From the NCBI GenBank assembly GCA_964016885.1, contig OZ024744.1:39494001-39558000 (forward strand): a stretch of DNA of 64,000 nt, read 5' to 3'. The notes under the pieces were generated by a model that saw only the letters and a program-made list of their open reading frames with translations, was not told the DNA's origin and did no database searches. Each line of letters begins with the position of its first letter. The stretch's first letter is position 1. This document shows, one piece after another, positions 3,902-20,789 of this stretch. The stretch is from Eledone cirrhosa. Its lineage: Eukaryota. Position numbers and translations under genes: made by a program.

Positions 3902-4016
3902 GGGGATTTCTTTCTTCGTTTCTGTGCCTTTCCTTTCTTCTATCCTACGCCATTTTGTTTCAAAATGGCGTAGGATAGAAGAAAGGAAAGGCACAGAAAC
4001 GAAGAAAGAAATCCCC

Positions 4017-6049: not shown

Positions 6050-6129
6050 GGGGGGGGGGGGGGGGGGTATAAATGTAATCTGAGTTTTTGAATATTAATA
6101 ATAATATTTGATTCGTTTGCAATCATGCA

Positions 6130-6335
6130 AACAAGCCTCTTTTAAGCTATGTCAGTAGAATGAGCTCCTCATTCTTGCTCTTGTGTTGGCATGTAAACAG
6201 AACTGGAGACACTAATGTTTCTGGGTATCACCCTTCATCGGTACAGCTCACTGTTCACCTGCCAATTGTCAGAGTTAGTGAAAATATATATTTTCTAAAA
6301 TATACAGTGACTGATCGGCCTCATTTGCATATTAG
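6130..6335 (-). mobile_element. Retrozyme-like octamer-TATA-hammerhead unit, copy C (degenerate core)
   Basis: Minus strand: ATGCAAAT (6330-6323), tatata from 6290, then gagctgta CCGATGA a gggt gat accc a GAAA cattagtg TC tccagttc (6249-6200). Confidence 0.6.
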
Positions 6336-6428
6336 CAGACTGGATGATCAGTCAAATCTGCATATTAGCAGATCCACTGATCAGCCAGATTTGCATATCA
6401 GCAGACTGGCCAGTCAGTTTGTGAAGTT

Positions 6429-6910
6429 TATGGCGATGATGTTGTAGGTGAATCAACTGTTCGAAAGTGGTTTGCAAAATTTAAAGCTGGAGAGTTTAGC
6501 TTGGGAGATGATAGTCGCAAAAATTGGATGAAGATGTATTGAAGGCAAAAATGGAAAAAATCTCAAATATTACGACTGGAGAACTTGCAGAGGAATTGGA
6601 AGTTTCTAAAAGTACGGCTCATGAACACCTAATGAAACTAGGATACATTTCTCGCTATAATGTATGGGTCCCTCACAAACTCTCAGAAAATAATTTCTTG
6701 GTCCGGTATTCTGTTTGTGATACGCTTTTGAAACGGAATGAAAGTATGCCTTTTTTAAAACAACATATGACTGGAGATGAAAAATGGATTGTGTACGAAA
6801 ACGTAGTGCGAAAGAAATCCTGGAGTTTGCGTAAGGATCTCCCAAAACAGCAACCAAAGACGAATATTCATACCAAAAAAGTTATGCTTTGTGTTTGGTG
6901 GGATCATAAA
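6429..6910 (+). pseudogene. Mariner-family transposase fragment
   Basis: YGDDVVGESTVRKWFAKFKAG then, after a frameshift, WVPHKL, MTGDEKWIVYEN, KKVMLCVWWD. Confidence 0.9.
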
Positions 6911-7381
6911 TACATTATATCGAGTGCTTTATTCCTCTTTCTATCTCTCCATCTCAGAATCGACCATATAAAGAAAGGAACATTCAACTCGTGTCGCTAC
7001 TAGTCCTTCTACCACGACATTGTGTTGATACGAAAAGAGTTGTTTTTTTTCTTTTCAAATGAAGTGTACTCGGGACTAAATTAGACAATGTATCTTTCCT
7101 TTTTCTTAAATCGATATGGTTTGGGGAGGAATCATTGCTATTCTAAATAGATTAAAGAGTTGCACAGAATATACCGTGTTGATTCTTGAAAGTAGCAATG
7201 ATGTTGTTAATGGTGATGGGAAAAGTATGAGATGATGACAGGGCGGCAGCGATGGTGATGGTGGTGGTAGTGCTGTTTTTGTTGGCGGCAGCGATGGTGG
7301 TGGTGGTGATAAGAGTTGTTTAATCCAGTGTTAGCGCTGATCCACAAACCTGTGGTTAAAGTTTTTCCAGTCGAGACCATC

Positions 7382-8649: not shown

Positions 8650-9383
<734 letters not shown>

Positions 9384-16508: not shown

Positions 16509-17110
16509 AGTATGTATGTATACGTACATGCATATATGTATACAGACGTACAGTAGTATGTATATATATACATACATGTACACATATATATACGTATCGG
16601 TTTACCGAACATTTATTAATATTCGGTTTGTTTGTTTGTAAACAAACAAACAGCCCGAATTACGCCGTAAAGTGTTCAAGCAACCAACGTCGCCTTTTTG
16701 TTCAACACTGACACAGGAACGATGTACTAGTTTCAAGCTTATTAGCTATCGTCAGCATCGTATACCTTTCTGCCAGATGATTGAACGTCTGAAAGTATAT
16801 ACTTTCCTTATGCATATTAACGGCTGAGCCCCCCCCCCCCCCAAAGGGGGGGGGGGGGGCGACGATGGTTGCTTGAACACTGTACGGCGTAATTCGGGCT
16901 GCTTGTTTGTTTAAACAAACAAACCGAACATTATAATAAATGTTCGGTAAACCGATACGTACATATATATATGTGTGCATGTGTGTATATATATACATAC
17001 TACTGTACGTCTGTATACATATATGCATGTACGTATAGATACATACTTACATTTAAGTAAGTGCCGTACTAAGAGTGAGAAATGAAATTTCGTTTCATTC
17101 TTTTCCATTT
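16509..17110. mobile_element. Fold-back hammerhead element (same family as 62397-63107 and 31095-31285)
   Basis: 16509-16694 inverted at 16858-17048; spacer holds hammerhead, palindromic TATA and a poly-C/AAA/poly-G hairpin; shared right tail gccgtactaagagtgagaaatgaaatttcg. Confidence 0.8.
16719..16761 (-). ncRNA. Minimal type-I hammerhead ribozyme
   Basis: acgatg CTGACGA t agct aata agct t GAAA ctag TA catcgt; palindromic ACTAGT stem III, GUA site. Confidence 0.75.
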
Positions 17111-17201
17111 ATATATATATATGTGTGTATATATATAGTTAGCTTGAAACTAAATTCCAATTCAATTCTATTATAAGTTGAACCAACTTATACAGCTTCA
17201 T

Positions 17202-17250
17202 ATGCAAATGTGATTAATCCCTCATTTACACAGACGAGAAAACTATATAT
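17202..17250 (+). promoter_or_regulatory. Candidate compact snRNA-type promoter (octamer plus TATA)
   Basis: Octamer-to-TATA spacing 42, 42 and 40 nt in three otherwise diverged copies. Confidence 0.45.
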
Positions 17251-17290
17251 CTCACCTGTTTTCAAGGCCAACAGTTGCAAGACGGAAGGG

Positions 17291-17334
17291 ATCGTCTTGA
17301 TGAGAACCAGTTCAGTTCGAAATGCATCGACGAT
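17291..17334 (+). ncRNA. Minimal type-I hammerhead ribozyme (U3 variant)
   Basis: atcgtc TTGATGA gaac cagttca gttc GAAA tgca TC gacgat; 6-bp stem I, 4-bp stem II, palindromic ATGCAT stem III, AUC site. Confidence 0.75.
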
Positions 17335-17448
17335 TGTCCACCTTGCTTCTGCTGCCATGGTGATAGCTGCCGGTGTCTTTGCATAGCAAGGCTTTGTAAA
17401 TGTTTATTTATAAACATACCGTATTTCTTTCGAAATCGAAATTCCAAT

Positions 17449-17513
<65 letters not shown>

Positions 17514-19981: not shown

Positions 19982-20475
19982 CATATAAGTCAGAAATAGC
20001 TGTCGGTAGTTTCCCCTTGGTTCAACTAAAACTCGCTAGGTGGCACCAGCTTTTAAAATCCTTAGCTAAAGGCTTTTAAAAGGTTATTCGTAAACATATA
20101 TATTATTCTATATACAAAACTTACATACTTATATACATACAACTATGCTAGAGCAACACTTAATTCTATTTCTTGTTCAGGGTGAGAGAGCCTACAGTTC
20201 CATATGCAAATGAGGCTAATCAGTCCTGTACATAAGTGTTAAAATTATATGTTTGTGCCTAAATTGAGTTTCAGCAGAAAGCGAGGTAGAGGGGTGGATT
20301 ACCTTAATGATGATCATATAAGTCAGAATCAGCTGTCAGTAATTTTCCCTTGCTTCTGCTGGAACTCGCTAGGTGACACCCTGCCACCAGCTTTTAAAAT
20401 CCATAGCTAAAGGCTTTCAAATGTTTATTTTTAAACATATCGTATACATATTATTCTATAGTCAAAACTTACATA
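19982..20475 (+). mobile_element. Retrozyme-like unit, copy B, partial tandem with 333-bp period
   Basis: 19982-20127 repeats at 20315-20475; octamer 20204-20211, TATA-like from 20246; decayed hammerhead attacc TTAATGA tgat catataa gtca GAAT cagctg TC agtaat; upstream half copy gtca GAAA tagctg TC ggtag. Confidence 0.65.
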
Positions 20476-20789
20476 TATATATATATATATGTATATAAAG
20501 AATAATAAACACCAGAATCAATATGTTGTCAAACTAACACATGTTTCAACCAACAGAGATTCATCCCAAGGATATGAGTCTATAAAATCAGGAATCTTAG
20601 AATTTTCTTAAGAAGGAAGGTTTTTTTTTATGTAAGGTTCCATTATGATTTTATACTTCAATCATCAGAAATAGATTCAAAATCAGTATCATCAGAGTTT
20701 TATTAACATAGAATATTAGCTTTATATATCAGCTCTGCATGAACCGTACTGCATTGAGCTTTAAACCTTCTGGTTAAGTCTATACCAAA

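Follow-up and report, generated by a model that had tools for sequence, protein, structure and literature searches.

Hammerhead repeat families of Eledone cirrhosa with putative snRNA-type promoters and Penelope-like insertion patterns

An octamer is part of the promoter of newt satellite 2. This hammerhead repeat of ~330 bp is described as carrying an internal snRNA-type promoter used by Pol II (PMC2220036, PMC6765202). In the hammerhead SINE-like Sm-alpha repeats of schistosomes, described as Pol III-transcribed, tandem units likewise contain a promoter followed by the hammerhead (PMC6765202). For the non-LTR retrozymes of coral, mussel and axolotl, cleavage, ligation and RNA have been shown, and Penelope is named as a candidate for their insertion; the mussel units measure 350-390 bp (PMC7229834). 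A study sampling 31 vertebrates, three insects and one coral gives retrozyme units of 51-972 nt, argues from co-occurrence and homology to Penelope pseudo-LTRs (pLTRs), and reports cleavage of one of nine predicted Xenopus retrozyme dimers (10.64898/2026.07.22.740005). Insertions of Penelope-like elements themselves are described as including partial tandems and a truncated copy in inverted orientation, as having a tail of 30-40 bp at one end and as favoring (TA)n (10.1101/2021.04.23.441226).

Here we analyze repeats of the 3.0 Gb genome of Eledone cirrhosa that probably represent high-copy non-coding hammerhead families, that is non-LTR retrozymes, with host-type snRNA promoter motifs, Penelope-type insertions and predicted self-cleavage. 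Features in common with the retrozymes of PMC7229834 are a type I hammerhead, tandem units that are short, low in GC and non-coding, copy numbers in the thousands and co-occurring Penelope elements. In contrast to these, the Eledone units reach 466 bp, are described at the DNA level and combine a common promoter cassette with a one-sided-tail anatomy, neither of which appears in the parts of PMC7229834 covered here (the word promoter occurs twice in its main text, both times for T7). The internal snRNA-type promoter is a feature shared with newt satellite 2; unlike the newt repeat, the Eledone repeats form several families, place the octamer immediately 5' of the proximal element and possess a TATA-like box. 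Their promoter motifs are of the upstream snRNA type, unlike those of Sm-alpha.

An earlier note on this DNA had proposed a mollusc-lineage element with no description in cephalopods. The first part is not new because mussel retrozymes have already been published (PMC7229834). The second part holds for the literature searched, which yielded neither octopus retrozymes nor this cassette, while supplements and Repbase may hold such families; the word ribozyme is absent from the main text of a 2026 repeat annotation of Octopus vulgaris (PMC13282606). Mollusc retrozymes and the snRNA-type promoter of newt satellite 2, which the Eledone families parallel, are thus already known. The match of the repeat promoter to host snRNA genes and the Penelope anatomy of the insertions are new.

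Hammerhead families in the window and in the genome

The window, a stretch of 64,000 nucleotides of contig OZ024744.1, contains copies of families A, B and C and five pieces of family H:

17132-17463, plus strand: family A copy spanning about one unit of 341 bp, 89% identical to the family majority, finishing at the short 3' end with (TA)n next to it
17202-17212, plus strand: A octamer with 3-nt extension, the same motif as 76-78 nt upstream of host U6/U6atac
17218-17231, plus strand: position of the A proximal-element-like word, TCAC in the family majority and decayed in the window copy
17244-17251, plus strand: A TATA-like box (TATATA)
17268-17354, plus strand: A type I hammerhead within long stem I, predicted cut after 17328
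19985-20487, plus strand: family B insertion that spans about 1.45 of the 346-bp units (upstream partial tandem copy and full unit)
20204-20253, plus strand: B promoter cassette, with octamer at 20204, TCAG word at 20220 and TATATG at 20246
20304-20337, plus strand: B hammerhead core, deviant (TTAATGA, GAAT), as is the family majority
6070-6420, minus strand: family C copy, 94% identical to the majority of the 438-bp unit, 5'-truncated, with short 3' end
6284-6396, minus strand: C promoter cassette, with octamers at 6396, 6363 (one mismatch) and 6330 set in 33-bp repeats
6208-6241, minus strand: C hammerhead core, CCGATGA at 6241 with deviant second base, predicted cut after 6208
16511-16829, minus strand: family H copy, with intact CTGACGA core at 16755, octamer lost through 5' truncation and short 3' end
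16859-17112, plus strand: inverted partner of this H copy, with long 3' end, stopping 19 nt before the A copy
31094-31287, plus strand: family H 3' fragment with long end
62397-63110: second H head-to-head pair, 62397-62703 on the minus strand and 62743-63110 on the plus strand, with cores at 62644 (minus) and 62805 (plus)

The octamers, TATA-like boxes and hammerhead cores that the earlier note placed at the A, B and C loci are all present at their positions, as are the stem pairings it named. In the A copy the core (TTGATGA, first base deviant) occupies 17297-17303, stem II 17304-17318, GAAA begins at 17319 and stem III is palindromic. The three loci had been presented as very diverged copies that barely align. 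This is true of the window copies as such, yet the family majorities of A and B show 69.7% identity along the full unit, making A and B sister families and leaving two independent lineages instead of three. The longest identical runs between A and B include a 12-nt block at the octamer and a 10-nt block at the TATA box. Core deviations, from which dead copies had been suspected, are specific to the window copy in A and C, while in B the family majority itself deviates. The window's three copies are likely inactive, in agreement with that suspicion, which we grade as probable.

Every family unit carries a type I hammerhead motif with a core that is intact in A, C, D and H and deviant in B. Pairing holds for 88.9% of stem cells in 18 natural copies representing ten subfamilies, compared with 23-41% in slid controls, and 11 of 13 stem pairs display two-sided changes; as the stem structure was handwritten from the hammerhead model and the alignment rows are related, the covariation figure is not a probability. 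The long stem I capped by each core is reflected in z values of -5.4 to -6.2 for A-D, -2.3 for H and -3.6 for E. Family D aligns to Rfam HH9 with 37.7 bits (E 1.5e-8 over 151 bases), which lies below the gathering score of 52. No Rfam hammerhead reaches its gathering score in 17 loci, and none is found for the window A copy at E<=10.

Units range from 310 to 466 bp (A 341, B 346, C 438, D 466 with 466-469 in arrays, H 420-430 and K 310), and the GC content of A-D and K is 0.34-0.41, to be set beside retrozyme criteria of ~170-400 nt and GC under 45%. The units are non-coding, with longest ATG-initiated ORFs of 50-102 aa, and a Pfam search of two frames over the window A and C copies returned no match. 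Both tandem dimers to multimers and dispersed monomers are present. This unit structure, the covarying fold, the lack of coding capacity and the coexistence of tandem and dispersed copies point to a hammerhead retroelement that codes for no protein and belongs with the non-LTR retrozymes, as the earlier note had put forward.

A first look at the whole genome gave 2,616 candidate copies of A, 953 of B and 1,881 of C, with 40 candidates scored for each. Among the 30 best copies of each family, which were picked by likeness to the window copies and may therefore be biased for B, CTGATGA is intact in 16/30 (A), 0/30 (B) and 25/30 (C), and the octamer is exact in 27, 12 and 26, respectively; the majority-type core of B, TTGATAA, is found in 14 of its 30. 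Octamers spaced upstream of the core, for which the earlier note had suggested a genome-wide test, are not a matter of chance. The pattern octamer-N84-108-CTGATGA-N10-18-GAAA has 10,051 matches genome-wide and its CTGACGA version 12,634, compared with one match each for the reversed controls; the total for octamer and intact type I core of 22,685 versus 2 counts family copies and not independent events. By our count, the first 100 CTGATGA-pattern matches listed comprise 81 D, 7 C, 5 A and 7 others. Five of the latter suggest families E, F and G, with F and G being candidates based on two and one copies, respectively, while the remaining two (L192 and L194) look like chance octamers and were rejected as family members.

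Family D is young, with neighboring array units 98.9-99.8% identical. A search of sequencing runs with the D monomer found matches in 6 runs from 4 studies with 4 organism codes, and no RNA run was listed. Family H, which has a CTGACGA core, came out of evenly spaced genomic regions and includes a 10-kb array: locus L316 (G000:C28:110000001-110010000) consists entirely of H units of ~422 bp. In 580 kb of such regions, A-D and H together account for 16 loci and for ~1.2% of the sampled bases (6,595 of 570,000, array excluded), which extrapolates to roughly some tens of thousands of loci in the genome. These families contain 11 of the 46 octamers sampled.

The octamer marks just a subset of the genome's hammerheads. 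Of the 36 exact-core hammerheads found in evenly spaced regions totaling 570 kb, 6 are accompanied by an octamer (background 2.6%; the reversed control gave 0 exact matches). The other 30 comprise 11 copies of a K array, 10 members of an AT-rich family and 3 hammerheads of the Penelope type, together with 3 truncated A or H copies and 3 singles. Family K (L331:281-3381; G000:C3:190.0 Mb, minus strand) is a 310-bp tandem array with 11 intact hammerheads and no octamer, and its 3' hairpins are common to A and B. The abundant AT-rich family (L329, L309, L332, L295 and L015:1261) also lacks the octamer, has a long stem II and often occurs as inverted pairs; it is probably another Penelope-linked family.

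The window contains a number of further features. A hammerhead-like motif at 38020 (plus strand) has an intact core, no octamer and a weak stem I, and lies 3' of a (TA)-rich run. Near-perfect inverted repeats of 85-100 bp are found at 3908-4010, 9041-9140 and 38501-38593. They account for the spurious miRNA-like hairpin matches that alone were seen among 150 of 215 matches listed in an Rfam search of the whole window. Tandem arrays are located at 28323-29837 (36-bp), 45580-49651 ((ACC)n) and 49737-51760 (38-bp). Reading frames at 52001-54911 (minus strand), 35155-36688 and 6515-7000 (plus strand) are, judged by eye, what we take to be degenerate reverse transcriptases of LINEs and a piece of a mariner-type transposase.

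Promoter motifs compared with host snRNA genes

The cassette of the repeats consists of the octamer, a proximal-element word and a TATA box. Host promoters compared with it are those at loci L121-L123, L231, L141-L230 and L337. The octamer is present at -76 to -78 in all four distinct U6/U6atac promoter types, exact in two and with one mismatch in two, and carries the same 3-nt extension as in the repeats. It is found in none of 71 upstream regions of U1, U2 and U5. These genes instead have in common an ATCAGT word at -55 to -58 with TATATA 25-28 nt later. AATTA near -89, TATATA near -31 and a 3' box are also seen in U1, U2 and U5.

To score the proximal element, a matrix was built from 13 distinct Pol II (U1/U2/U5) promoters, with leave-one-out scores of 8.9-28; U6/U6atac score below zero. 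In C and B the best-scoring site lies precisely 17 nt from the octamer start, with values of 15.2 (p 1e-4, rank 1 of 876) for C and 8.5 (p 0.006, rank 1 of 692) for B; the match at this position is weak in A (1.9, p 0.054, rank 2) and H (2-4, p about 0.045) and missing from D and E. In the window, the C word at 6314 (minus strand) is the best match to host U1/U2/U5 promoters with a score of 20.3, with TATA at 6290. Family K possesses the word at the expected place (8.5, p about 0.06) and a TATA box, without the octamer. By sequence comparison, the octamer of the repeats and, clearly in C and B but weakly in A, H and K, the proximal element match the host's own snRNA promoters, which agrees with the snRNA-type promoter suggested in the earlier note. 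The octamer and the TCAG word are combined in no host snRNA gene examined.

Which polymerase would use this promoter is best judged from spacing. RNase P RNA has one gene, which carries this TCAG/ATCAGT word as well, with TATA 32 nt later and a T10 run, and which lacks the octamer. Since this gene ends in a T-run, the word represents a general proximal element that does not decide the polymerase, and the distance from word to TATA is the better guide. This distance is 25-28 in Pol II genes and 31-33 in U6, U6atac and RNase P; it is 26-29 in A, B, C, D and H and 31 in E. Insect and plant work indicates that such spacing can set polymerase choice. The proximal element is reported further upstream in Pol III genes, and RPPH1 is reported to use both enzymes (PMC3499247).

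The same elements could instead be driven by a Pol III type-3 (U6-like) promoter yielding short RNAs terminated at T-runs, with longer templates arising through leaky termination. Among host genes examined, the extended octamer occurs solely at U6/U6atac, RNase P uses the TCAG word together with a T10 terminator, and the 3' ends of D (359-365 and 432-434) are located at or shortly after T5 runs. Family E (L196 and L198) combines U6-like spacing with a T-run right after the hammerhead hairpin and is a candidate Pol III version. We nevertheless consider Pol III unlikely for the elements as a whole: the spacing in A, B, C, D and H is that of U1, U2 and U5, promoter-bearing copies longer than one unit (105 of 287) would need read-through of T-runs, and newt satellite 2 is described as a Pol II repeat (PMC2220036, PMC6765202). 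Less favorable to the main reading are T4-T6 runs inside the units. No significant 3' box is found downstream in the units, with C giving the best match (p 0.09).

Insertion anatomy and the link to Penelope

The insertions resemble Penelope-like elements and their pLTRs (10.1101/2021.04.23.441226) in 5' truncation, partial tandems, an inverted 5'-truncated partner, a one-sided extension, microsatellite targets and a type I hammerhead. They differ in lacking an ORF and in part in tail length, which is about 35-40 nt in A and C and 56-73 nt in H and D versus the 30-40 reported. Over all non-redundant loci, 69 paired insertions are head-to-head and 1 is tail-to-tail. One short and one long 3' end are combined in 36 of 43 classifiable pairs (49% expected, p 3e-6), with 26 further pairs having an unclassifiable end and the end classes having been drawn after seeing the data. 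Of 89 A-C copies, 60 have a microsatellite no more than 45 nt from the 3' end, compared with a background of 14%; the microsatellite flanks obscure any pattern of target-site duplication. While 3' ends recur sharply (of 29 in D, 12 fall at 359-365 and 13 at 432-434; in H1, 9 of 25 fall at 386), 5' ends are variable. Fragments exceed one unit in 105 of 287 cases, and the sequence on the upstream side consists of partial copies in tandem or of inverted ones. The predicted cuts fall at unit positions 131 in A, 127 in C, 132 in D and 112/120 in H. No overall pile-up of 5' ends is seen at the predicted cut, where 5 of 285 lie within 2 nt and 3.6 are expected; a cluster noted post hoc is confined to C. 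The insertion pattern suggests that the repeats likely spread as RNA copied by Penelope.

Satellites amplified at the DNA level or rolling-circle (Helitron-like) repeats, with the hammerhead and promoter as passive relics, would account for the long homogeneous arrays and the AT-rich DNA hairpins near the 3' ends. They appear very improbable in view of the fixed 3' and variable 5' ends, the head-to-head bias, the compensatory stem changes across families and the retention of one promoter geometry by families without other alignable sequence.

A young coding Penelope-like family is present in the genome. Its frames of 754-823 aa contain reverse transcriptase and C-terminal GIY-YIG motifs (the Pfam GIY-YIG match having an E of just 0.026), and many copies are 95-99% identical. 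The units could be solo or tandem pseudo-LTRs of another coding Penelope family and not independent retrozymes, in line with their Penelope insertion anatomy, with the homology of Xenopus retrozymes to pLTRs (10.64898/2026.07.22.740005) and with the coding side being covered by one family at 38 loci. We regard this as improbable. The coding family examined owns a hammerhead without the octamer and has no detectable sequence in common with A-D, which means that the units do not form its terminal repeat. Pure arrays of more than 10 kb occur, and the upstream flanks noted above consist of further repeat copies. Units joined to a reverse transcriptase-endonuclease ORF as a terminal repeat were found in none of 110 element loci and 38 loci of this one coding family. 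By eye, Penelope-like ORF fragments are present in 2 of the 110 element loci (L015 and L202; flanks of ~1.5-2.5 kb), neither joined as a terminal repeat. The earlier note had named a unit that is always the pLTR of a coding Penelope as refuting its proposal; in the one coding family examined, no such arrangement was found.

At L015, the seed locus and 1 of 30 loci, a C fragment and a fragment of the coding Penelope-like family are joined head-to-head, and another C fragment is fused to a U6atac retrocopy. Two BLAST matches in which D or B lies close to a coding Penelope copy (L265 and L251) were rejected as fusions, as they are not at the truncation junction.

A separate observation concerns the hammerhead of the coding Penelope-like family. 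At L134 (G000:C10:48072680, minus strand) and L272:2045-2090, the 3' end of a U6 retrocopy is joined exactly to the first base after its predicted cut. This junction, 1 of 26 retrocopy junctions, is likely a fossil of in vivo cleavage and ligation to U6, and similar ligation has been reported for U6/L1 chimeras (PMC6789731). By eye, none of the 26 retrocopy junctions listed, with L408 appearing in two rows, shows U6 or U6atac fused at the cut site of A-H.

Proposed life cycle and significance

Taken together, the families are likely retrozymes with a borrowed host promoter, their spread probably involving RNA that cut itself and was copied by a Penelope retrotransposon. All RNA steps of the following scheme are modeled on the coral, mussel and axolotl retrozymes of PMC7229834, as far as that source was covered. 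Transcription would begin at the internal promoter, more likely by Pol II than by Pol III, with a SNAPc/POU-driven start ~57 nt downstream of the proximal-element word (near octamer+74), close to the base of the long stem I. The polymerase may read through into the next unit, as proposed here in the light of the lack of a significant 3' box. Hammerhead cleavage would then release unit-length RNA, possibly acting as dimers because stem III is short and palindromic, and the cut RNA could be ligated into a circle. A Penelope reverse transcriptase-endonuclease would copy this RNA into (TA)n sites by target-primed reverse transcription that begins at the AT-rich hairpin end and continues for more than one unit.

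Retrozyme transcription and the inserting enzyme are questions left open by PMC7229834 and 10.64898/2026.07.22.740005, as far as these sources were covered, and both can be tested here in one genome, where the repeat promoter can be set against the host's own snRNA promoters. The rule of one short and one long end in head-to-head pairs represents a mechanistic footprint of Penelope integration that goes beyond co-occurrence. The young, near-identical families D and H are ready templates, and the host snRNA promoter motifs could aid the design of small-RNA expression tools for Eledone cirrhosa.

More tentatively, and at a confidence we put clearly on the low side, an old retrozyme superfamily may have assembled a hybrid promoter from a U6-type octamer and a proximal element and spacing of the U1/U2/U5 type, kept it in at least five families and been spread by Penelope to tens of thousands of sites. 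If so, about a quarter of the genome's octamers, judging from the sample, would belong to these repeats and circular RNA would be abundant. Capture of an snRNA promoter would then represent a recurring solution of animal retrozymes, reached here and in newts.
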